Source: an uncultured Rivularia sp. (GTDB lineage Bacteria; Cyanobacteriota; Cyanobacteriia; Cyanobacteriales; Nostocaceae). From it: DNA of 64,000 bases. The stretch lies in contig OY762007.1 of the NCBI GenBank assembly GCA_963665115.1, forward strand, positions 1,664,001 to 1,728,000, read 5' to 3'. This document shows, piece by piece, positions 35,254-58,141 of this stretch. Position numbers and translations under genes: made by a program. Positions within the stretch are counted from its first letter, which is position 1. Each line of letters starts with the position of its first letter. The notes under the pieces were generated by a model that saw nothing but the letters and a program-made list of their open reading frames with translations, was not told the DNA's origin and ran no database searches.

Positions 35254-35381
35254 GGATGCAACTTGTATTTTCTACACAACGTATTAATCAGGGTTTGAGA
35301 CAATTTTACTGCCATCAACTGCTTCCACCTTACTGTCATCTTCTCGGTAAAGTGACAATTTGTTTAGCTGTTCAGGGACTC

Positions 35382-38300
35382 GTTTCCAACTAATCCGAAT
35401 TAACCCAATCGGTGGGGAAGTAAATTCTTTCTTTAAGGCTGGATTAAAGGAGAGTTTCCAACTAATCCGAATTAACCCAATCGGTGGGGAGTTCTCCAAT
35501 AACATCTAACTGCACTGTATAGTACAGTTTCCAACTAATCCGAATTAACCCAATCGGTGGGGCATACCCAATTAACGGGAATATATTGCCTGAATAAAGT
35601 TTCCAACTAATCCGAATTAACCCAATCGGTGGGGAAACTGTCGCAAGAAATGCTGCTTTTGCTCTTATTGAAAAGTTTCCAACTAATCCGAATTAACCCA
35701 ATCGGTGGGGTTTTGATGGAGACATTGAAATCACTGAAGGATACGAGTGTTTCCAACTAATCCGAATTAACCCAATCGGTGGGGTGGCTAAGTTCAATTC
35801 TATTCGCAGCATCTTTTGTTTCCAACTAATCCGAATTAACCCAATCGGTGGGGTTTTAACATCTAACTAAAAAACAAATTTGCTCGGTTTCCAACTAATC
35901 CGAATTAACCCAATCGGTGGGGAACTTTTTTAACGACAAGAACAACGCTGTTAAGGTTTCCAACTAATCCGAATTAACCCAATCGGTGGGGTATCCCTGC
36001 AAATTTTGTGGGGTGACTACGGACAAAAGTTTCCAACTAATCCGAATTAACCCAATCGGTGGGGTCGTTTCTTAAAGAACGAAAATAATCAAAAGAGAAT
36101 AGTTTCCAACTAATCCGAATTAACCCAATCGGTGGGGATTTCTTAAAAAGAAATCACATACACGCCAATTTATGTTTCCAACTAATCCGAATTAACCCAA
36201 TCGGTGGGGAAGAGAATCATTGAAAAGTTTGAAAATAACGAAAGTTTCCAACTAATCCGAATTAACCCAATCGGTGGGGGAGAATTAATTCTTCCAGCGA
36301 CAGAAATGGAAATGGATCGTTTCCAACTAATCCGAATTAACCCAATCGGTGGGGTAAGAGACAAGAAAGATATAGCGGAAGAAATTAATAAAGTTTCCAA
36401 CTAATCCGAATTAACCCAATCGGTGGGGTGTTCCCAGCAGTTTCAAACCCTAGTCTCTCGTAAAAAGTTTCCAACTAATCCGAATTAACCCAATCGGTGG
36501 GGTAATTTCAATTTTTCTGAGAAGTTAGAATCTGTTAGTTCGTTTCCAACTAATCCGAATTAACCCAATCGGTGGGGGTCGTTCTTCTGTAGGAAGAGGT
36601 ATTCCAGAATATAAAGTTTCCAACTAATCCGAATTAACCCAATCGGTGGGGTCTTTTCAGAAGCCAATAGATGTGATGGAATTCGTAATGTTTCCAACTA
36701 ATCCGAATTAACCCAATCGGTGGGGTGGTGTTCACCGTATGTTTTTAGTAAATAAAGCTAATGTTTCCAACTAATCCGAATTAACCCAATCGGTGGGGTT
36801 TGTTAGAAAAAAGCAGCCACGTGGTTGCTTTAGAGTTTCCAACTAATCCGAATTAACCCAATCGGTGGGGAAATATAATAGCGGTAAAACAGTTCCGAAT
36901 TCTAATGTTTCCAACTAATCCGAATTAACCCAATCGGTGGGGAATATGGTGAAATTTCTTTTACAGAAATTAAAGATAGTTTCCAACTAATCCGAATTAA
37001 CCCAATCGGTGGGGAAAGACAAAAGAGGAAGTCTTAGACTTTCCACCTAACGGTTTCCAACTAATCCGAATTAACCCAATCGGTGGGGGGCTGTTTGAAA
37101 AACAGCATAAGTCGAGGTCAGTTAGAGTTTCCAACTAATCCGAATTAACCCAATCGGTGGGGGGAGTCAGCCACTGAGGCGACTCCGGCAACTATAACGT
37201 TTCCAACTAATCCGAATTAACCCAATCGGTGGGGGCAGCCAGAATCAAAAAGGCAGCAAGTCCGGAGGATAGTTTCCAACTAATCCGAATTAACCCAATC
37301 GGTGGGGTTTTTTTGTTTATCAGTTGCATAGTCTGTATTCATCAGTTTCCAACTAATCCGAATTAACCCAATCGGTGGGGTACAACATTTTGGCAGTATT
37401 TACTACTGCGGCTTTTAGTTTCCAACTAATCCGAATTAACCCAATCGGTGGGGCGAAAGGATAACACGAGTAATATTGTATTATAGGGAAAGTTTCCAAC
37501 TAATCCGAATTAACCCAATCGGTGGGGTAACATTTTCGCTTTTTCCTAACTAGCTAACTTGTTTCCAACTAATCCGAATTAACCCAATCGGTGGGGATCT
37601 GGCGCTCCTGCAAGGACAGGATTAGTCAACATGTTTCCAACTAATCCGAATTAACCCAATCGGTGGGGGCTTTGGTTTTTGCGTCTTTGTTTCTTTCTAT
37701 TTTCGTTTCCAACTAATCCGAATTAACCCAATCGGTGGGGCAGTCAAAATGCGAATTGGAATGCGAACTGGAAAGTTTCCAACTAATCCGAATTAACCCA
37801 ATCGGTGGGAAAAAAATTTGCTAAGTGAATAACGAAAAAAACGAAAACAGTTTCCAACTAATCCGAATTAACCCAATCGGTGGGGGATTGTTTGTTTCAA
37901 TTTTACGAAGGCAAGTACAAGTAAGTTTCCAACTAATCCGAATTAACCCAATCGGTGGGGCACTTATCTTTAAGGATTTGCTAAAATGTCTAACGTTTCC
38001 AACTAATCCGAATTAACCCAATCGGTGGGGAAAAATTTGACGAAGCATTAGAATTAGCAAGAAAGTTTCCAACTAATCCGAATTAACCCAATCGGTGGGG
38101 AAAAAGATTCTGAAAAAGAGGCTCTTGCCTCTTTGAAGTTTCCAACTAATCCGAATTAACCCAATCGGTGGGGCTCACATTTTTCTGTCTTCATTTGATT
38201 AGCTAACGTTTCCAACTAATCCGAATTAACCCAATCGGTGGGGCGGTTTGTATTGATGGAAATTGTGCAGGATTTTAAAGTTTCCAACTAATCCGAATTA

Positions 38301-41300
38301 ACCCAATCGGTGGGGCAGAAGGGGAAAACATTTTCTTCTCTGAAAAAGAGAAAAAGTTTCCAACTAATCCGAATTAACCCAATCGGTGGGGGATCAAAAA
38401 GATTCTGAAAAAGAGGCTCTTGCCTCTTTGAGTTTCCAACTAATCCGAATTAACCCAATCGGTGGGGTTTTTCAATATATTTGTTAAATGCTGGCGGATA
38501 TTTAGGTTTCCAACTAATCCGAATTAACCCAATCGGTGGGGAATTCGTGGAATTGAAGTTTTAAAAAGCTACCGTTTCGTTTCCAACTAATCCGAATTAA
38601 CCCAATCGGTGGGGGTTCCCCGTTGTATTTACAGGAGGATTCACCAAGTTTCCAACTAATCCGAATTAACCCAATCGGTGGGGACAGTATTGAAAAAATC
38701 TCTAAGTCAGATATAAAAGTTTCCAACTAATCCGAATTAACCCAATCGGTGGGGGATAAATGTTTTCAAGATAGGAGGGTATTTCCAACGTTTCCAACTA
38801 ATCCGAATTAACCCAATCGGTGGGGCTGAAGAAAAAAAAGAAGAATGCGAACCTAAGGCACAGTTTCCAACTAATCCGAATTAACCCAATCGGTGGGGCA
38901 ATATTCAAAACATGGGTTTTGGTATTGGACAAAGAAAAAGTTTCCAACTAATCCGAATTAACCCAATCGGTGGGGAAACTGAAGAAGAAGTTGAAACTGA
39001 AGCTGAAGAAGAGTTTCCAACTAATCCGAATTAACCCAATCGGTGGGGCAAGGGGTCGTGATGTTGGCGTGCCTCACACACCTCAAGTTTCCAACTAATC
39101 CGAATTAACCCAATCGGTGGGGATTTCATCTATTTGCTTACTTAAAAGCAATGCATAGTTTCCAACTAATCCGAATTAACCCAATCGGTGGGGATTGGGC
39201 ATGAGAGATAACTGAGAGAACCACCAAGGTTTCCAACTAATCCGAATTAACCCAATCGGTGGGGAAACTTTATCTTTATTTTGGGGAATTCTGCTTTAAA
39301 GTTTCCAACTAATCCGAATTAACCCAATCGGTGGGGTGCAAAACCAGGTCAGCGAGGCTATGAACCTCCCAGTTTCCAACTAATCCGAATTAACCCAATC
39401 GGTGGGGAAAACTAAAAGGGAAGCATATAGTTGGCAGTAAAGTTTCCAACTAATCCGAATTAACCCAATCGGTGGGGAATACGACAATCGTAGGTTTGCA
39501 AACTATGCAGTTTCCAACTAATCCGAATTAACCCAATCGGTGGGGGTGAATTAGAAGCAATGGCTTCCGGTTCATCTGATTTGGTTTCCAACTAATCCGA
39601 ATTAACCCAATCGGTGGGGTCTAATAGTGGAAATGTAAGCATTAGCGGCAATAATAGTTTCCAACTAATCCGAATTAACCCAATCGGTGGGGTAGTGGAA
39701 ACGGAATGAATGTAACGCAAATTAACGTTTCCAACTAATCCGAATTAACCCAATCGGTGGGGCGACGGCTATAGCAGTAAAGTTTCATGGGGTACTTGTG
39801 TTTCCAACTAATCCGAATTAACCCAATCGGTGGGGAAGCACTGAGAACCAGTTCAAAAAGTTTGATACTAATGTTTCCAACTAATCCGAATTAACCCAAT
39901 CGGTGGGGTCCAACAAGATTACATTAATTAACCATGTAACAAAAGTTTCCAACTAATCCGAATTAACCCAATCGGTGGGGTAGATGAAAATAATCTAGCA
40001 CATCTTGCTATAATAATGTTTCCAACTAATCCGAATTAACCCAATCGGTGGGGATGGCACCTTAAGCCTGGTAAATCTGAATATTGGGTGTTTCCAACTA
40101 ATCCGAATTAACCCAATCGGTGGGGTGTTGAACTGGGGAGGTGTGTTGCTGCCAGTAAGGTTTCCAACTAATCCGAATTAACCCAATCGGTGGGGTAGAG
40201 ACGATGTAGTTTATTTTTTAAAGGATTGTTTCCAACTAATCCGAATTAACCCAATCGGTGGGGTTTCCTTTTGGGTAGGTTCTGAAAAGATAACATTCCA
40301 GGTTTCCAACTAATCCGAATTAACCCAATCGGTGGGGATGGGTAAATTAGGACATAGGGAAACCTGTGTTCAAGGTTTCCAACTAATCCGAATTAACCCA
40401 ATCGGTGGGGTGTAAGTAACATTAACTCCTATTAGTTTATTAATGTTTCCAACTAATCCGAATTAACCCAATCGGTGGGGACATGGTTAAAGAAGCTGAC
40501 GGTCGCTGCATGAACGTTTCCAACTAATCCGAATTAACCCAATCGGTGGGGTTGCTCATCATTACGTGAAAAAGTAACGGTGTGATAAGGTTTCCAACTA
40601 ATCCGAATTAACCCAATCGGTGGGGAAAGAGCAAGAGTTACAAGTCATGGTTTATAAGATAAAGTTTCCAACTAATCCGAATTAACCCAATCGGTGGGGG
40701 ATTGAAAGATATAAAGCAAAAAATTGAGTTAGTTGAAAGTTTCCAACTAATCCGAATTAACCCAATCGGTGGGGAAACGGAGCGAAAGTTCCAAAAGTCT
40801 TAGTTACTGGAGTTTCCAACTAATCCGAATTAACCCAATCGGTGGGGGTTCAAAACAGAATTGCGCTTTTTTCTTTGTTTTCGTTTCCAACTAATCCGAA
40901 TTAACCCAATCGGTGGGGAAACAAATTTATCTGAGAGCTACAAACGCATTTGTTTCCAACTAATCCGAATTAACCCAATCGGTGGGGTGGTTTAATTAGT
41001 CTAGCAGTAGCATCCGCACGTAATAGTGTTTCCAACTAATCCGAATTAACCCAATCGGTGGGGAAACAGCCCAAGAGACCTGAAAGACGACCAATAAACG
41101 TTTCCAACTAATCCGAATTAACCCAATCGGTGGGGTTGATGAAAATAAGATGTATAACTGCCAACGGAGTAGTTTCCAACTAATCCGAATTAACCCAATC
41201 GGTGGGGTTTTTATTGCTTCTTTCGTAATTTTCAATCATCAGTTCCGTTTCCAACTAATCCGAATTAACCCAATCGGTGGGGTTATTTTACAGAAAGACG

Positions 41301-41858
41301 GAGTAATCATAATGATTAGTTTCCAACTAATCCGAATTAACCCAATCGGTGGGGGAGAAAACTCTATAATGCTTGCAAAAGCATAATAGGTTTCCAACTA
41401 ATCCGAATTAACCCAATCGGTGGGGAGAGATTATATTTTCAATGGAAAGAAGGTTGGAGAGTTTCCAACTAATCCGAATTAACCCAATCGGTGGGGTTTT
41501 TTATAATAATAAAAACAACTATGGTTGATAAGTTTCCAACTAATCCGAATTAACCCAATCGGTGGGGGGTTCACGCTTCTTCTGCTCGTGCAGAAGAGGG
41601 AAAGTTTCCAACTAATCCGAATTAACCCAATCGGTGGGGCGTCTCTACGCAAATTGGTGTGTAAAATTCTTTAAGTTTCCAACTAATCCGAATTAACCCA
41701 ATCGGTGGGGGTCGCTTCTGTTTTGACTATTGCTCAGGTGAATATTGAAGTTTCCAACTAATCCGAATTAACCCAATCGGTGGGGTGCTAAGTTTTTCTA
41801 TGAAAGCTTAGAAAGCATTAAAGTTTCCAACTAATCCGAATTAACCCAATCGGTGGGG
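35382..41858 (-). CRISPR. CRISPR array, 90 repeats / 89 spacers by manual count; 36 nt repeat CCCCACCGATTGGGTTAATTCGGATTAGTTGGAAAC
   Basis: Near-identical repeats with ~32-41 nt spacers. The GAAAC 3' end and the leader next to cas2 give minus-strand orientation. Confidence 0.99.
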
Positions 41859-42077: not shown

Positions 42078-42353
42078 CTATATGACATAATAGTTTGGTG
42101 GCTCTTGAGGATGTTCGCTACCAATAGTTAACACTCTGGAAACAGCATCTTCAGAAATCCAATAAAATCGCACGTTATCCTCAGATGGCTTGACAATTTT
42201 TTTCGATTTCTCAAAAAGTTGTCGCATTTCATCTAAATTTAAAAAGCATTCAAATACAGAAAATTGTACTCTTTGCCCGTAACCCTCTAAAAAGTTAGAT
42301 AATTTAGTGCGTCTTTTATCATTAGGAATATCATATACAACAACCACTAACAT
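42078..42353 (-). CDS. cas2: Cas2
   Basis: VVVYDIPNDKRR..L..YG.RVQFSVFEC..D.VRFY. Confidence 0.97.
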   Translation of the reverse strand: MLVVVVYDIPNDKRRTKLSNFLEGYGQRVQFSVFECFLNLDEMRQLFEKSKKIVKPSEDNVRFYWISEDAVSRVLTIGSEHPQEPPNYYVI

Positions 42354-42400
42354 CTTCAATACTAAGAATTAATTTGTTACTTAAGTATAAGATGCTTTAC

Positions 42401-42449
42401 AAGTAATAAGTAAGAAGTAAAAAGTAAAAAGTAAGAAGTAAAAAGTAAT
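42401..42449 (+). repeat. Heptamer tandem array (AAGTAAN)x7
   Basis: Read directly; inverted relative to 42892-43036. Confidence 0.9.
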
Positions 42450-42456
42450 AAATTGG

Positions 42457-42828
42457 TTATTTTTGTTTAAGTTTATTAATCGAAGATACTAATACCTTAA
42501 TAATTTCTTCATTTTCTTGTATCATATTGTTGAATTTGGATTTCAGCACTAATTCTGATTTAATCATTATTTTTATCCAATAAAGAGTCTCATTAGCTTC
42601 TTTCAAGGCTATAGAATACTTGTTGATAAAATCTGCGTTTGATTGAGCATACTTAGCTTCCGAACAGTTTGCTCCTATTGATGTTCCACTTCTTAAAAAT
42701 TGCTTAGATAATACCTTACCCGCATCGTCAAAAGGTCTTTTATTTAGTTCGCAATAAGCTTTGATAACTCTGATAGCAAAATTTTCTGTTCTTTCTTGAA
42801 TACTAATATTACCCTTATGATTAACCAT
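42457..42828 (-). CDS. Four helix bundle protein (23S rRNA IVP / Avd-like family)
   Basis: QFLRSGTSIGAN..EA..AQS..DF..K..IALKEA.ET.YW signature. Confidence 0.92.
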   Translation of the reverse strand: MVNHKGNISIQERTENFAIRVIKAYCELNKRPFDDAGKVLSKQFLRSGTSIGANCSEAKYAQSNADFINKYSIALKEANETLYWIKIMIKSELVLKSKFNNMIQENEEIIKVLVSSINKLKQK

Positions 42829-42891
42829 GAATCAAAAATAATGCGACAACTTGTTATTAATCGAAAAACAATAAATAACGTATCAAGTATA

Positions 42892-43036
42892 ACTTCTTAC
42901 TTCTTACTTCTTACTTCTTACTCATTACTTCTTACTTCTTACTTCTTACTTCTTACTTCTTACTTCTTACTCATTACTTCTTACTTCTTACTTCTTACTT
43001 CTTACTCATTACTTCTTACTTCTTACTTCTTACTTC
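42892..43036 (+). repeat. Heptamer tandem array (ACTTCTT)x~20
   Basis: Read directly; begins at the cas1 stop codon. Confidence 0.92.
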
Positions 43037-44159
43037 AGTCTGCTCTTAGGTAAGATTCATAGATAATATCAGATAATAAACAGCGCTTATATCTCCTAAC
43101 TTGTAATTGAATTGCATGTCGATATGTTACTTGAGAAATTAAATCTGGATGAGAAATTTCTTCATTCATGCGATTTTCAAACTGTTTCAGAAAAACTCTT
43201 CTAGCAGTTTGACTTAAATAAACTCCTCCTGTGGTTGCGACGACATCAAAGTCTTTCGGTTTAAATTCACTATTATTAATTACTTTTAAAACCAAACTAT
43301 CAACAATAGGAGAACGAAATTCTTCCATTAAATCAAAAGCTAAATATGTTTTTTGCTTATCACCATAATGAAAATGACCGATATATGGTGAAAGTCCTTC
43401 GGTAATAATAAAGCTGAGTACATTATTAAATAAAAGTGTATAGCCAAAACTCAATAATGAATTTATCTCATCGGTGGGAGGCTGCCGAAATCTCTGAGAA
43501 AAACTAAATTTAGGATTAGTAATTAAATTCCCAAAGGCTGGAAAATATCTAGCAGCAGCAATTCCTTCATAACCGCGCAAAGTATCTAAGTTATCAACAT
43601 AATTCAAAGCATCAATATCTTGATTAATTCCATAGATAGCTTCTTCTACTTTTCCTATTTTGCGTCTGCGATTAAATCGCATCAATAATTGTTTGGAATT
43701 CAATAATTTACCTAAAACAACCGCTCTTGATACGCTAAATCGAAATAAATCATCATTACGTCTTTCTACTTGAACTAATTGATTATCCAGATGAATAGAT
43801 TTTTCGCTCCATAAGTGACCATGATATGTACCAGTTTGACTGAGAAATACCACGGGAATTTGTTCTTTTAAACAAGCTTGAATTACTGGAGTTGATAATT
43901 GAATATTACCGAATACTATAATTTGCTCTACTTCCCGAATCGGAACTTCAAGCTTCGGTTTTTCTGAGACATGAATAATAAACCGCTGATAATCTTTATA
44001 GATATTTGTTCCTTGTTCAATTAAGTATATAGCCGCCATTTCTTGATTCCAAATATTTTTTTGAAAAGGACTATCATCCTCTGCTGTTTGTGGAGGTTTT
44101 TCCGTGATTGTTTCGGCAAAATATGGTTTGTGTAGATAACGTATATTTTCATAACCCAA
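43035..44159 (-). CDS. cas1: Cas1 (frame open back to the A9 tract at 44243)
   Basis: IYLIEQG, LRGYEGIAAARYF, INSLLSFGY, G.FH, DLMEEFR. Confidence 0.97.
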   Translation of the reverse strand: MGYENIRYLHKPYFAETITEKPPQTAEDDSPFQKNIWNQEMAAIYLIEQGTNIYKDYQRFIIHVSEKPKLEVPIREVEQIIVFGNIQLSTPVIQACLKEQIPVVFLSQTGTYHGHLWSEKSIHLDNQLVQVERRNDDLFRFSVSRAVVLGKLLNSKQLLMRFNRRRKIGKVEEAIYGINQDIDALNYVDNLDTLRGYEGIAAARYFPAFGNLITNPKFSFSQRFRQPPTDEINSLLSFGYTLLFNNVLSFIITEGLSPYIGHFHYGDKQKTYLAFDLMEEFRSPIVDSLVLKVINNSEFKPKDFDVVATTGGVYLSQTARRVFLKQFENRMNEEISHPDLISQVTYRHAIQLQVRRYKRCLLSDIIYESYLRAD

Positions 44160-44203
44160 ACCAGCAAAACCGTTAGTTATTGAATTAGAAGCTTCAGCTA
44201 ATT

Positions 44204-45166
44204 CTAAACTGCTTTCTTCTTTCGATATTGGTTGCGATAGACTTTTTTTTTACTAGTTTTTCTAGTTCTCGTTTTCTCGCGATTGTTTTCAATAGCTGAC
44301 CTTAATTTAGCTTTATTTGTATCTACAGGGAAAATTGCATCTTCTAAAAAACCATGACCTAAAAAACGAAAACCGCGTTCAAAGCTAGTAATTTGGGTTT
44401 TCTCGGTATTTATTTCTAACCCCATCGAATCCAATAAATCAATCACTTGCGATTTTGCGATCGCGATTCGTTCTTGACTAGTTGATAAAACCAAAAAATC
44501 ATCAGCATAACGCACGATTTCTAAATCACTAGCGCTAATAATTCCATCAAATTCATGGAGATAAATATTTGCCAAAATTGGAGAAATAACCGCACCTTGA
44601 GGAATACCTTTTTGAGGTAAGATTAGCCCTTCTCTAGTTTCCACACCAACCGAAATCCAAGCTTTAATTAAACATAAAATACCTGGGTGGTCAATATGTA
44701 ACCTTACCTGTTGTAACAAGCGATGATGGTCAATATTATCAAAAAACTTGACGATATCAGCATCCAAAACCCAGACATAACCCATGTCTCGCCAATCGGC
44801 TATTTTCTCTACCGCATTGATATAAGATAAATTAGGACGATAAGCAAAACTTACAGGTGAAAATTTCTCTTCCATTAACGGACTAATTACATTTAATAGA
44901 GCTTGCTGAACAATTCTGTCTCGAATAGTAGGAATTTTTAACTCTCTTTGGGAGCCATTTCTTTTGGGAATAATTACCTGCTTGCAAGGAGAAGGTTGAT
45001 AGCTACCATCAGCAACAGAATTCATTAACTGATAAATGTTAACCGTTTGATTGCTAGCAAAACTACTAATAGTTTCACCATCAACACCCGCACAACCGCG
45101 TTTATCAGCAACCTTTTCCCAAGCACGCTGAAAATTATTAATATCGATAAATAGACTGGAAATCAT
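44204..45166 (-). CDS. CRISPR-associated reverse transcriptase (group II intron-like)
   Basis: IPK..G..R.L.IP.IRDRIVQ, DADIVKFFD, GIPQGAVISP, RYADD, FLG; directly upstream of cas1. Confidence 0.95.
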   Translation of the reverse strand: MISSLFIDINNFQRAWEKVADKRGCAGVDGETISSFASNQTVNIYQLMNSVADGSYQPSPCKQVIIPKRNGSQRELKIPTIRDRIVQQALLNVISPLMEEKFSPVSFAYRPNLSYINAVEKIADWRDMGYVWVLDADIVKFFDNIDHHRLLQQVRLHIDHPGILCLIKAWISVGVETREGLILPQKGIPQGAVISPILANIYLHEFDGIISASDLEIVRYADDFLVLSTSQERIAIAKSQVIDLLDSMGLEINTEKTQITSFERGFRFLGHGFLEDAIFPVDTNKAKLRSAIENNREKTRTRKTSKKKVYRNQYRKKKAV

Positions 45167-52400: not shown

Positions 52401-53792
52401 AGCTTACCCATGCGGTTCAACTGGTCGAAGACATCGCTATTTATGCGGATATTATGCTGAGTAAAAAAGAACCCAGCCAAAACATTTTCTACATTCAAAG
52501 CTTTAGCAAAATCCCGCAATGTAATTACTACAGGTAAACGGGGACGCTCTAAACCTCTTTTTTGAGCATCTTTGTAGCGCTGTAATGCAGTCCAAGCATA
52601 GTGAAAAGCAAACCAGGTTTTACCAGTACCGAATTCACCCAATATAGAAATATGCTCCTTTGCGGGGGTCATCCAACCATAAATCAATATAGCCATCAAT
52701 CCAACCGTCTTCTTCTTCATAACGGCTTACACCTATGCGTCGTTTAGTAACTGGGTCAAGTTCTTCCTTAGTACAGGCTAAAGGTACATACTTAGTATCA
52801 ACCTTTCGGCGTTTAATTTCCGCTTCCAACCAATTAACATAACCGCTAAAATCAGCATCAAGGTCAATCAGTTCGTCAAAAGTATAGCAATCAAGAAAAC
52901 GGTTTTCTTCCTTCTTAACCTCATCCCGCGCTGCTCTAGAAATTCGACGAGTAGTTACCAACCAACCTTCATCAGTTTTTTGTTCCTGCACCGAAGAACG
53001 CAAAGCCATAACATCGCTAAGTCCGATTTCTCCAGCAATTCCACGTACTAAGATGCGGTCAAAACTACGTCTTACAGGAATGTTAATGATAAATTCAAAA
53101 TACTCTTCTGCCCAAACTTCATGATTTTCAAAGCTATAACCTAAAGTTTCAAACCAACCGCGCATTTGTTGAGCTAATGCTATGGCTCTGCATTGATTTT
53201 CAGACGTTACCTGTAACGTCTCTACATTCTTGTCGGGTAATGCTGGATAATTCTGTGCTGCTAATCGTGCAATTTCTGTACGAATACCTTCTAAAGTCGG
53301 CATTCTATCAAGCTGCTCTTGAATATTTTTGATACTTGTATGTAAAGAACCAATTTGCTGGCTCATCATCGTATCTGCTGGGTTGCGGGTAAGTCTAACG
53401 ACTTGCGAAAACACGATGTAAAACGCTGCAATTTCCCGCTTGATATCAACTCTCAAACTTTTGATTTCATCACCCAAAGCATAAGCATCGACAAAAGCAT
53501 CTACCTCAGACAGCAATATTGAAGGGTTATTGTGGTCAAATGCTTTGCGAAACGCTGCTTTAATTTCTTGTTGACGAAACAACTCAAGAATGGGCTGTGG
53601 CTTACCAACACCATATTCTACAAGAGTATAAGCATATACCCCGCTAAAATCTCCCGGTGGATGCTCTGGGTCAATTTTAAACTGCTTAAGTAATTTAATT
53701 ACAGTTTCATTACGCTGAACCTTTTCTTTAATCACAGGTTGAGCGATGCCACTAATTGCTTTAAACAGCAAATCCAGATTAATTAGGCTCAT
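49327..53792 (-). CDS. NACHT NTPase with N-terminal helical and REase-like domains, pentapeptide and many WD40 repeats; two +1 frameshifts (~52665, ~49678)
   Basis: [36 protein letters not shown] repeats, PYE.MNITGV.GL C-terminus. Confidence 0.88.
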
Positions 53793-55230
53793 GGAAAGAG
53801 ATTGCGGTAAACAAAGGGTGTTGTAACTGTCAGCAGTTATTACCATTAAAAATTATACACCGCAATATCTTGGTCTAACTTTATACTTTTTCAATGATTT
53901 ATTTAAGTGGATATAGAAATAAAACATACACCTTGAAATAATAGTACGCAATTACTAAATTGTTGACAATAATTACTTCCGAAATCGCAAAGATTTAGTA
54001 TAATATTTGCGCCATCTTCCAAAAAGCAATGTAAGCGCGCATATCAAGTTAACCCACAACAAATAAACGCTACTCCCAACTCCGAATCAATCATGGGAGT
54101 GGTTGAACGCTTGACCTATCACTCCGAAGAGTCGGGTTATACGGTAGCGCGGTTACAGCGTCCAAGGGTATCGGAATTAACTACCATTACGGGCAGCTTT
54201 GCAGGTATTCAGCCCGGACAAACGCTTCAACTTAATGGTTTCTGGCGCGAACATCCCTGCGGACGGTTTGCAATTTCAAGTTACCAACTACAAGGAAACT
54301 AAACCAGCAACAATCACGGGAATCGAAAAGTATTTAGGTAGCGGATTAATTAAAGGAGTTGGTCCGGTAACAGCAAAACGTATCGTTGCTCATTTCGGTA
54401 CAGAAACTCTCGATATTATTGACAATCAAATCGAGCGATTGCAAGAAGTGAATGGCATTGCGAAGAAACGTATTGCCATGATTCAGAAAGCTTGGAAGGA
54501 GCAACGAGCCATAAAAGAAGTGATGGTATTTCTTCAAAGTCATGGTGTCTCAACAACCTACGCGGTGAAGATTTACAAACATTACGGTGATTTGGCAATC
54601 AATAAAGTTAACGAAAATCCTTACCAGCTAGCAACCGATATTTATGGAATTGGGTTTCTCACTGCTGATAAAATTGCTCGTAATTTGGGGGTTCCTCCAG
54701 ATTCGGAATTTAGATATAAAGCTGGTATTATCCACGTTTTAAGCGAAGCAGCAGATTCAGGACATTGTTATTTACCGCAACCGGAGTTAATACAACAGCT
54801 TTGTGAAAAACTAAAAACTGACGAACATCAACCACAAGAGGATGGATTAACAAAAGTCATCAGCGATATGTCTCTCAGCGATGAATTAATTAGAGAACGT
54901 GATGCTGATAAAGTATTACTCTGCTACAAACCAACCTTCTTCCATACCGAACAAAACCTAGCGCAACTTATACTTTCTCGTTTGCATCAAACGATAAATA
55001 CAGATATACCTCGCGTTCATAATTGGTTGGAGCGTTTTAGCCAAAGCCGTAAAGTTTCATTATCAACGGAACAGCTACAAGCAGTTGAAACCGCAGCTTA
55101 CTCAAAAATCATGGTAATCACTGGTGGTCCCGGTGTCGGTAAAACGTTTTGTACCCGGACTATTGTTTCATTATGGAAAGCGATGGGTAAATCAATCGCT
55201 CTAGCTGCACCAACTGGACGAGCTGCACAG

Positions 55231-55719
55231 AATAATTCGTAATTCGTAATTCGTAATTCGTAATTAATTAAGATTACATTTAAAAACTGAATATGAGATA
55301 ATTATTAATAGTTAATTGACATTATAAAGATGATTCATAATATTAGTATAACTGACAGAACTAAAAAGTTTGCAGTTAGAATTATAAAAGCTTGTTGCTT
55401 CCTAGATGAAAAACCAGGAGTTAATCGAATAATATCAAGCCAATTACTTCGTTCTGGAACATCTATTGGTGCTAATGTTCGAGAAGCACAATCGGCACAG
55501 TCTGATAAAGATTTTCTTAGTAAACTAGAAATCGCATTGAAAGAAGCAAGGGAAACTCAGTACTGGTTGGAAATTATAATTGAATCTGAGTTAGTAGAGA
55601 AATCTAAGTTTGATTCTTTACTTCAAGAAGCTAATGAAATTGGCAAGATATTAGTTTCTTCTACTAAAAAACTTAAACAGAAATAATTACGAATTACGAA
55701 TTACGAATTACGAATTATT
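55231..55719 (+). mobile_element. Four-helix-bundle cassette with perfect heptamer-array inverted ends
   Basis: 55231-55266 is the exact reverse complement of 55684-55719. Confidence 0.75.
55330..55686 (+). CDS. Four helix bundle protein (IVP/Avd-like), second paralog
   Basis: QLLRSGTSIGANVREAQSAQS..DF..K..IALKEARET.YW. Confidence 0.92.
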   Translation: MIHNISITDRTKKFAVRIIKACCFLDEKPGVNRIISSQLLRSGTSIGANVREAQSAQSDKDFLSKLEIALKEARETQYWLEIIIESELVEKSKFDSLLQEANEIGKILVSSTKKLKQK

Positions 55720-56234
55720 TTGGTATGCTTGATTTATTTTTGGCATATTCATTATTTGAAGCGGTAGCGGATGATACGCAACTTCTCCTTGTTGGGGATA
55801 TAGATCAGCTGCCGTCAGTCGGTGCTGGTAACGTTTTGGCAGATTTAATTCATTCGGGTAAAGTTCCGGTAGTACGGCTCACCCAAGTCTTTCGTCAAGC
55901 TGCAAGTAGTAAAATTATTACCGCATCTCACCAAATAAATCGCGGACAATATCCTTTGATTGAAACAATTTCCGATACCCCCGAATCGGATTGTTTGTGG
56001 CATGGAGGAGGTTTTCAGCCGGAGCATGGGGTACAAGCAATTAGCGAGTTAATCACAGATTTAATTCCCAGACTTGGTTTTAATCCTGTGACTGATGTAC
56101 AAGTACTCGCACCAATGACGAGAGGTTTGGTTGGTACGCGCAATCTTAACAACGTACTGCAAAAACTCATTAATCCTCCTAGTCCCCAGAAGATAGAAGT
56201 AACAAGGGGTGGGATAATTTTTCGAGTTGGCGAT

Positions 56235-56262
56235 ACACCCGGAGGGTGTCGGCTTCGCCTAT
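56235..56262. mobile_element. 28 nt small dispersed repeat inserted in a HIP1 site
   Basis: GCGAT[ACACCCGGAGGGTGTCGGCTTCGCCTAT]CGC; removal restores GCGATCGC and FRVGDRVIQ. Confidence 0.8.
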
Positions 56263-56757
56263 CGCGTTATTCAATTAACTAACGATTACCACCGGGAAGT
56301 TTTTAATGGGGATATGGGTTTTATTATTCATATTGACACTGAGGAACAGGAAGTTATCGTAAAATTTCAAGAACGTGATGTGATTTACGATTATGCCGAT
56401 TTAAACGAACTGGCCGTCTTCTTGGAGCGTTAGCATTCACAAATCCCAGGGTTCGGAATATCCGGTTGTATTTTTGCCACTATACTCGCAACATTTCGTA
56501 ATGTTGAGCAGGAATTTATTGTATACCGGCTTAACTCGTGCAAAGAAGTTAGCGATTATTATTGGTAGTAAGAAAGCGATAGGTATGTGCGTTCGTTCTA
56601 GAAAATCTCAGGAGCGATATACGCAGTTGAAGGAAAGGTTGATGAAAGTTTCTTGTATTCTAAATTAATTAACTAAAAGCTTTATTACAAAATTAAGATA
56701 ATAGGTTTTTAGACGTTAGATAATATCTACGACGGATATTTAAAGGAGATATTTAAC

Positions 56758-57551
56758 ATGGCTGCATCAACAAACTCATCTCCCGTTGATAAATTGATAA
56801 ACTATGGCGACATAAGCGAAATGGAAGCAACTCCCGATTATGTCAAAGAATTTGGCTTTAGTGCAGAACATATCCCCGAACTCATAAGTATGGCAGGTGA
56901 TAAAGAGTTAAACTTTGGGGATGTTGACAGCTTGGAAGTATGGGCACCAGTTCATGCTGTGCGCGCATTAGGTCAATTACGCGCCGAAGAAGCAATTGAA
57001 CCTTTAACTAATTTAATTCACGAACTTGATGATGATTGGATGAGTACAGAACTATCCAATTTCTTTGCTGAGATAGGACATAATGCAATTCCTGCACTCC
57101 AAAAGTATATAGGAGACTCTTCCCATGAAAGCTATGAACGTGCGGATGCTGCAATGTCTTTGACTCAAATCGTCGAGAAGCATCCAGAACTCCGCAATAA
57201 GTGTGTAACAATTTTAACAGGCGAATTAGAAATTTTGCAGATAATGACCCAGATTTAAACGCTTGTTTGGTTGGGGAACTGATTGATTTAAATGCAGTAG
57301 AGTCTGCACCCGTAATTGAACGTGCGTTTGCTGCGAATCAAGTTATACCTTATTTAGTGGGAGATTGGGGTGAAGTACAGGTATCTTTGGGGCTAAAAAC
57401 AAGAGAAGAAGTTCCAATACGTAGATTTTCGCCCCAAGAAATATTTGAGTACTACGGGTACAAAACGAAAGCACAAAAACCACTTGGCTTTGCTACTAAT
57501 TTAACAACAAAACAGAAGAAGAAAAATAAGAAAAGTAAAAAGCATAAGTAG
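56758..57551 (+). CDS. HEAT-repeat / DUF1186-like protein, frameshift near 57230
   Basis: WAPVHA.RALGQLRA.EAIEPL; continues FADNDPDLNA..GDW.EVQ in the next frame. Confidence 0.7.
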
Positions 57552-58141
57552 ATGCTTTACACATCAAATTTTTAACAATTTATTATTAATTGATAAATGC
57601 ATTGGGTACAAATTACTTTACAATCCCAATGCAAGAAAAATCATTAATACATTTATCCCATTACTCAATATAATTAATTACTCCCGGTTCGCTCATTTTT
57701 TTTCGAGTTCAGAGATATTGCCTAAAATCGAAAAATCTATACACCGCAATAGTTTTCGCGATTTACCTAAATTTATCTTGAACTAACACTCTGCTCAAAA
57801 AACCCTACTTTATATGCGATCGCCCAAAGTCAGGAAGAAAGTACATTTGAATCATAGCCTGGAACCCTGATTAAATCGTTCAGCTTTCTTCTAACTCGAT
57901 TTTAAATGGGCGAACGGTGAGTAATTAGGTATAATCCGCAGAAATATTCAAAAATATACCTGGAGCAGAGAAAAATACTTCTATCATTACAAGCAAGTTA
58001 TCGATTTGAGAAGTTTATTATACTGGTCTACAAAATCATAAAACGTAGTTAGATTTATTATAACTAGTAGATAAACAAAATATTTAATATAAATACAAAA
58101 TTAGCTGTTGCTGAGGGTGAAAAATCAATGAGAAGAAAGTA

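Follow-up and report, generated by a model that had tools for sequence, protein, structure and literature searches.

A cassette with inverted heptamer-array ends replaces part of recD2 in a Rivularia genome and is likely a mobile element that overwrites its target without a transposase

Arrays of 7-base units (STRR heptamer arrays) and small dispersed repeats are reportedly a feature of cyanobacterial genomes (Mazel 1990; Elhai 2008). To our knowledge these repeats have been described as non-coding, and neither genes enclosed by inverted arms nor coding DNA replaced by them have been reported; we know of no function for the cyanobacterial heptamer arrays or for the IVP/S23p protein family. Insertion sequences (IS) and MITEs with adjacent deletions are a further reference point; they have fixed inverted ends, knock out genes and leave junctions which are anchored at the ends of the element.

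MITEs and insertion sequences with adjacent deletions were compared with the help of PMC3542288. In Coxiella burnetii, helix 45 of the 23S rRNA carries an intervening sequence (IVS) with an S23p ORF, a 28-bp stem and heptamer repeats, which is excised by RNase III; a role of the ORF in mobility is proposed there, not shown, and the ORF is reported to be decaying (PMC4990558). The Avd protein of diversity-generating retroelements (DGRs) binds nucleic acids and the reverse transcriptase, RT (PMC5758913), and DGR integration replaces DNA via short identities (PMC3240598). The kinship of PF05635 with Avd is already in print (PMC10053308). Homology-facilitated illegitimate recombination, in which one homologous anchor is combined with one microhomology join, is documented in naturally competent bacteria (PMC6382021).

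The window analyzed here is the whole stretch of 64,000 nucleotides from an uncultured Rivularia sp. (genome G000, contig OY762007.1). Inside its recD2 gene a cassette of about 490 bases was found, in which a single small gene is flanked by runs of a 7-base repeat in mirror image. The cassette lies on the plus strand at 55230..55722, which is 493 bp between the last and the first recD2-matching bases, each boundary being defined to ±1 nt owing to microhomology. The left arm (55231..55266, plus strand) has an A-rich terminal linker followed by a heptamer array of unit CGTAATT with four full units, and is followed by an AT-rich leader (55267..55329, plus strand), which shows 1–5 differences in 66 nt among the five copies described below. 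The four-helix-bundle gene of the IVP/S23p/Avd-like type (55330..55686, plus strand) is intact and encodes 118 amino acids. The right arm (55684..55722, minus strand) overlaps its stop codon and is the exact complement of the left arm over 36 bp, so that the longest exact inverted repeat around the gene, 55231-55266 / 55684-55719, is the one which the sequence-only reading had described. The ends of the cassette reach about 5 nt past the arrays, and the terminal ATTTTG of the right arm is common to all five recD2 copies. A folding prediction gave z = -7.6 for the RNA stem closed by the arms. The same reading had seen neither a transposase nor an obvious target duplication; the ORF list and a profile scan gave the four-helix-bundle gene as the only ORF, and no flush direct repeat is present at the ends.

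The 5′ part of recD2 (54029..55229, plus strand) stops after the GRAAQ motif and the 3′ part (55723..56668, plus strand) restarts just ahead of MLDLFLA. In a profile search against TIGR01448, model positions 55-373 were matched and then 419-586. Comparison with orthologs agreed with the earlier proposal that a segment with the Walker B motif had been replaced: in intact alleles the two flanks are separated by 134 bp, the last of which are the Walker B codons, and in the window by 493 bp. Excision of the cassette could not restore the gene because these 134 bp are gone. Apart from the cassette the window recD2 is a pseudogene, because it has one extra base near 54262 (a frameshift), a 28-bp insert at 56234 and one extra base near 56415-56420 (again a frameshift). 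The insert (56234-56261) is a hairpin that splits a GCGATCGC site, which we take to be HIP1, and is shared by the cassette-free allele L159.

The locus adjoins ardA (profile scan) and reads as part of an integrated conjugative element, with secretion, relaxase and integrase genes 10-50 kb downstream, the labels being read from ORFs. A third cassette of the genome lies in the same putative conjugative element (G000:C1:1755414-1755764), and one of its arms is read as the hydrophobic N-terminal part of the neighbouring opposite-strand ORF. The second cassette is in the window itself (42081-45166, minus strand), with AAGTAAG-type arms, between cas1 and cas2, and adjoins an RT gene of the group II-like kind and a CRISPR array of 90 repeats (35381-41858). 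Escape from CRISPR was considered and is unsupported: 282 candidate spacers of G000, some of them from false arrays, were compared with the fetched loci and no recD2 match was found among the matches listed.

The ORF at 55330-55686 scored 108 bits against TIGR02436 (cut-off 24) and 88 bits against PF05635 (cut-off 33.8). The model of its protein has four helices (pLDDT 93) and matches 2RLD, a structure of five chains, with TM 0.85 and 2GSC with TM 0.78; against Avd 4DWL the TM is 0.74 but with E 0.14 and 15% identity. The family scores and the folds of 2RLD and 4DWL thus bear out the suggested kinship with 23S IVP and DGR Avd. The protein is basic (pI 9.1) and its closest named relatives are from filamentous cyanobacteria. 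Among the five recD2 copies the gene has pS 7-26% and pN/pS 0.02-0.05, and the protein is nearly invariant; the gene is under purifying selection. It is open in 26 of the 27 cassettes compared, L093 carrying a stop; L078, outside these 27, also carries one. Selection on the gene while the flanks die suggests that it is needed in cis, but a benefit to the host element would give the same signature.

Set beside the ORF-bearing 23S IVS of Coxiella, and also of Leptospira, the cassette has the same protein family, a similar size (about 430-490 nt), terminal inverted repeats that close a long stem, and heptamers upstream of the ORF. It differs in lying in protein-coding genes, not in rRNA, in removing target DNA, in having many junctions, and in that its ORF is under purifying selection whereas that of the Coxiella IVS is reported as decaying. 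Its host gene has lost 134 bp with Walker B, so the product is not functional after removal, unlike the case of the 23S IVS. With the DGR of Bordetella phage BPP-1 it shares an Avd-like fold, basic charge, replacement of the target without duplication, and the sufficiency of short identities at one end. In contrast to a DGR, however, it has no adjacent RT (the nearest, beside cas1, is at a distance of 10 kb), no template/variable repeat pair (no direct repeat >20 nt in 53000-58000) and no adenine mutagenesis, its joins use 0-5 nt instead of 8 or more, and the whole cassette is delivered. The cassette resembles IS and MITEs in its terminal inverted repeats, gene knock-out and end-anchored junctions, and is unlike them in the lack of a transposase and of a duplication, in the loss of target at every two-sided junction mapped, and in its heptamer-array ends. 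The arms are the same kind of 7-base arrays as STRR, which are abundant in this genome. No published description of the cassette or of its integration was found in the literature searched, which leaves subscription journals mostly uncovered. The cassette is likely a variant of the known IVP-type design with a previously undescribed integration by replacement.

The junctions are supported from several sides. Contigs of run X2, which may be the source sample, span both cassette junctions with zero differences; G019, a genome independent of G000, has a right junction identical to that of the window; run X10 holds an intact recD2 allele, and run X11 a junction 40 bp further left. Misassembly, the first danger for the sequence-only reading, is ruled out by these contigs, the G019 junction and the intact alleles elsewhere. 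Chance juxtaposition of common repeats would be the related worry, since G000 has 2,634 heptamer runs and, of its 37 inverted pairs with a spacing of 300-900 bp, 33 surround sequence that is not an IVP-family gene; but inverted arrays flank 8 of the 10 four-helix-bundle loci of G000 against 12 of 1,568 ORFs of 100-150 aa, a comparison set which still includes the four-helix-bundle genes. The family is thus flanked by inverted arrays far more often than other genes, as the earlier reading required, and artefact or chance is left with next to no probability.

A near-identical cassette was found in four of 27 genomes of the genus and in one metagenome contig, in all five cases inside recD2 and in one orientation, with cores 94-98% identical; this lineage has one copy per genome. 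Measured along an intact allele of 2,235 bp, the cassette takes the place of 1199-1334 in G000, about 1160-1334 in G019, 333-1894 in G004, 70-about 1612 in G011 and 734-1636 in L169, which gives five left and four right junctions with 134-1,560 bp replaced. A further right junction, near 2171 and in the usual orientation, comes from a single contig of run X13. Inverted, non-overlapping recD2 copies had been considered for X8 and X13 and are ruled out; X8 has the G019 junctions, X13 has the usual orientation, and L139, used in that comparison, carries recD2 on the minus strand. Among 30 loci compared, 12 recD2 copies are continuous over the site, four have the cassette and five have plain deletions there. 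Of the earlier proposal of a transposase-less mobile cassette with heptamer-array ends, mobility is supported by this presence/absence polymorphism, which that proposal had called for; it had missed that target stretches of variable length are replaced, that the cassette recurs in recD2 at different junctions, and that its ends lie beyond the arrays.

Other lesions of recD2 were also seen. Six cassette-free copies have large deletions over the cassette region, including a second remnant in G000 (G000:C1:4266364-4267074; L154, L155), deleted from gene position 1064 to 1735; recD2 of G024 has a different left and an identical right breakpoint, and no cassette. In this genus the gene is also broken by other elements at the fixed positions 244, 333-337, 1418, 2022 and 2081 (L143, L147, L148, L150, L156-L159, L163, L167, L168). 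Two genomes from another genus have a separate cassette lineage in their recD2, of 75% nucleotide identity and unit CGCAATT, which is oriented the opposite way.

The flanks of the five alleles have pS 27-53% and pN/pS 0.06-0.13, and hence diverged as live recD2 genes. Since they diverged more than the cassette, and did so while alive, the cassette is older than the death of its present flanks and moved between alleles. A single clade of cassette-bearing flanks was rejected in three segments (p-AU 4e-5, 7e-3 and 4e-6; 20 rows per segment, rows covering <55% of a segment excluded), a tree test which is weakened by the alleles being mosaics. An account in which each gene received one insertion, followed by deletions anchored at the cassette ends and by refreshing of the dead flanks through recombination with intact alleles, can draw on this mosaicism, on the overlap of all fully mapped intervals at 1200-1333, on the single orientation of the five copies, and on the G004 interval containing that of L169, its closest cassette relative. 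It would still need end-specific joining, the flanks bear a live-gene signature, and it cannot produce the non-overlapping sites in ASCH and dcm, given next; we regard it as improbable.

Relatives of the cassette occur on 34 plasmid records, 19 of them from Nostoc. Compared with intact alleles they replace about 65-360 bp of target (57-347 bp between array ends): 316-329 bp in dcm, 220 bp in ASCH, 321 bp in alkB, 112 bp in rpn, and 57, 142-190 and 293-347 bp in three hypothetical genes. The targets were picked as broken-looking with an intact reference, and the share of replacements is accordingly biased. Cassettes that are 97% identical replace intervals 188-418 and 736-1062, in ASCH and dcm respectively, of a reference holding both genes. 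In the dcm-type alleles ASCH is intact; in the ASCH-type alleles dcm is not the direct neighbour, and in L080 it is intact but 2 kb off. As the two intervals do not overlap, relocation is indicated, which nested deletion cannot give.

For the junction rule 29 ends were mapped from 17 loci, excluding four ends common with another locus, one without a reference, and junction-repeating loci. In 23 of the 29 ends the target sequence breaks off 4-7 nt short of the first AATT core, and all 10 ends of the five recD2 copies lie ≤7 nt from the first array core. The consensus of an end, read from outside, is C-A-A-A-A-(T/C)-AATT. The last non-A target base is C, followed by 0-4 A, in 23 of 29 ends (background 0.29, binomial p ~4e-8; counted by hand, with a rule found post hoc on the same ends and weak in older copies), and in 22 of 27 without two poorly placed breakpoints. 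The X13 right junction fits the rule. C at -6 was found in 18 of the 29 mapped ends against 15 of 48 other ends, mostly between genes and read without references. No flush duplication was found in 15 loci; eight of these have no repeat ≥3 nt near both ends, and the repeats of the rest are short and offset. Target DNA was lost at every two-sided junction mapped. Two ideas on the linkers were dropped: that they are made anew at each event, as an identical left linker stands at three different recD2 junctions, and that DGR-type mutagenesis makes them variable, which was unsupported, the left and right linkers varying alike (by eye) and shared junctions drifting.

Among 73 distinct loci arrayed on both sides, the modal arm length is 33 nt (27 left and 20 right arms). 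This modal array and the fixed inverted ends would suit a MITE-like passenger that depends on a transposase encoded elsewhere and has lost its duplications to adjacent deletions, and a one-armed 126-bp repeat of G000 ending in the same heptamer array does have 4-bp duplications. Against such a passenger, no mapped cassette keeps a flush duplication, the array units differ between cassette lineages, and the window lineage has a single copy in each genome; this explanation is very unlikely. The 126-bp repeat lies at G000:C1:6904954-6905083 and 7252011-7252140, with TCAC on both sides and internal hairpins, and has many relatives in G226 and G019. Two solo arrays of G000 have 4-bp duplications as well, unlike cassettes; the one at 3422458 has the same 4-bp duplication as the 126-bp repeat. 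The view of solo arrays as truncated cassettes gave a mixed result, two having these duplications and two resembling rewritten spacers. At one between-gene site (G000:C1:8567383 and L300-L304) the array units and terminal linkers differ in five relatives, as if repeatedly rewritten. In L031 both arms carry an identical small insert. The gene of L036 sits within a perfect inverted repeat of at least 267 bp, which may stem either from copying of an arm or from a fold-back in the assembly.

Certain pairs of loci have one junction in common and differ at the other (G000/G019, L087/L093, L253/L083, L074/L079), and each cassette lineage is loyal to one gene or plasmid module. Junctions can persist, and linkers are inherited and drift, since L250/L082 and L074/L079 have common junctions although their flanks are about 76-80% and their cassettes 87-89% alike. 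The half-shared pairs and the loyalty are what passive capture would give, a process in which homology anchors one side of an incoming single strand of DNA while the other flank is trimmed by exonuclease down to the paired arms and joined by microhomology, the protein being cargo kept for another benefit; the documented recombination of competent bacteria (PMC6382021) shows the same loyalty to homologous DNA. Entering a gene for the first time, as in recD2 (twice), ASCH and dcm, alkB and rpn, would need both ends to be joined unanchored, however, and the cassette ends are fixed within a few bases with C preferred in the target. Passive capture leaves the fixed C spacing and the selection on the gene unexplained. 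A long co-inherited dead tract is also not seen beside the right junction shared by G000 and G019, where the first difference is 28 bp away and eight of nine differences over 1334-1600 are at third positions. Passive capture is an unlikely account, though less so than the single insertion with later deletions.

Fixed ends, target loss without duplication, many junctions in one gene, and purifying selection on the cassette gene are what the comparisons show, and a mobile element that overwrites target DNA and does without a transposase is the likely interpretation. How the cassette would move can be proposed from the sequences: each fixed end may find a target site of its own through a match of 1-5 bases and prime there, likely steered by homology and with the protein predicted to be needed, the DNA between being lost. 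We favour this account tentatively, at just short of an even chance. A single cassette strand, RNA or DNA, would fold, with its arms pairing into a stem, and both cassette strands would have AATT-R-TTTTG as their 3′ terminus. Its last G(T)n would base-pair with a target 3′ end in C(A)n, from which synthesis would run across the cassette, and the other target end would prime the second strand likewise at a separate point; mirror-image ends would be required because both target ends prime in the same way. The DNA between the two priming points would then be lost. Guidance by homology, which would likely steer the cassette back to the same gene, is suggested by the loyalty to one gene. On plasmids and integrated conjugative elements the knock-out would be tolerated and stay visible, and in chromosomal operons only events sparing both neighbours would survive, which would give the between-gene copies. 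By analogy the protein is predicted to be Avd-like and may bind the cassette strand and a borrowed host polymerase, possibly a reverse transcriptase.

A more specific form of the two-end priming account, possible but rather unlikely, would have the IVP/Avd-like protein bind the stem-closed cassette RNA, borrow a host RT and, starting from two separate target 3′ ends that finish in C, copy the cassette into place over as much as 1.5 kb of target, as an element without transposase, integrase or nuclease. Seven RT hits were obtained in G000. Five of them were scanned and match models of the group II-like or retron-like type (one of the five lies beside cas1), and the DGR RT model is absent among the matches of these five. 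At L270:1047-2241 a retron-like RT stands behind a small gene, presumably of the helix-turn-helix type.

The between-gene copies hide the scars of insertion, and the copies inside dispensable plasmid genes keep them. It is these scars, set against intact alleles, which give the fixed ends, the target loss, the absence of duplication and a candidate one-base joining rule. In cyanobacterial conjugative elements the genes inactivated by the cassette include recD2, methyltransferase, ASCH and alkB. If the cassette protein drives the move, this would be a so far unknown mode of DNA movement, and it would connect rRNA intervening sequences with DGR Avd; and if the borrowing of a host RT is true, it would also explain the ORF-bearing rRNA intervening sequences, the between-gene cassettes of many phyla and the origin of the cyanobacterial heptamer arrays.
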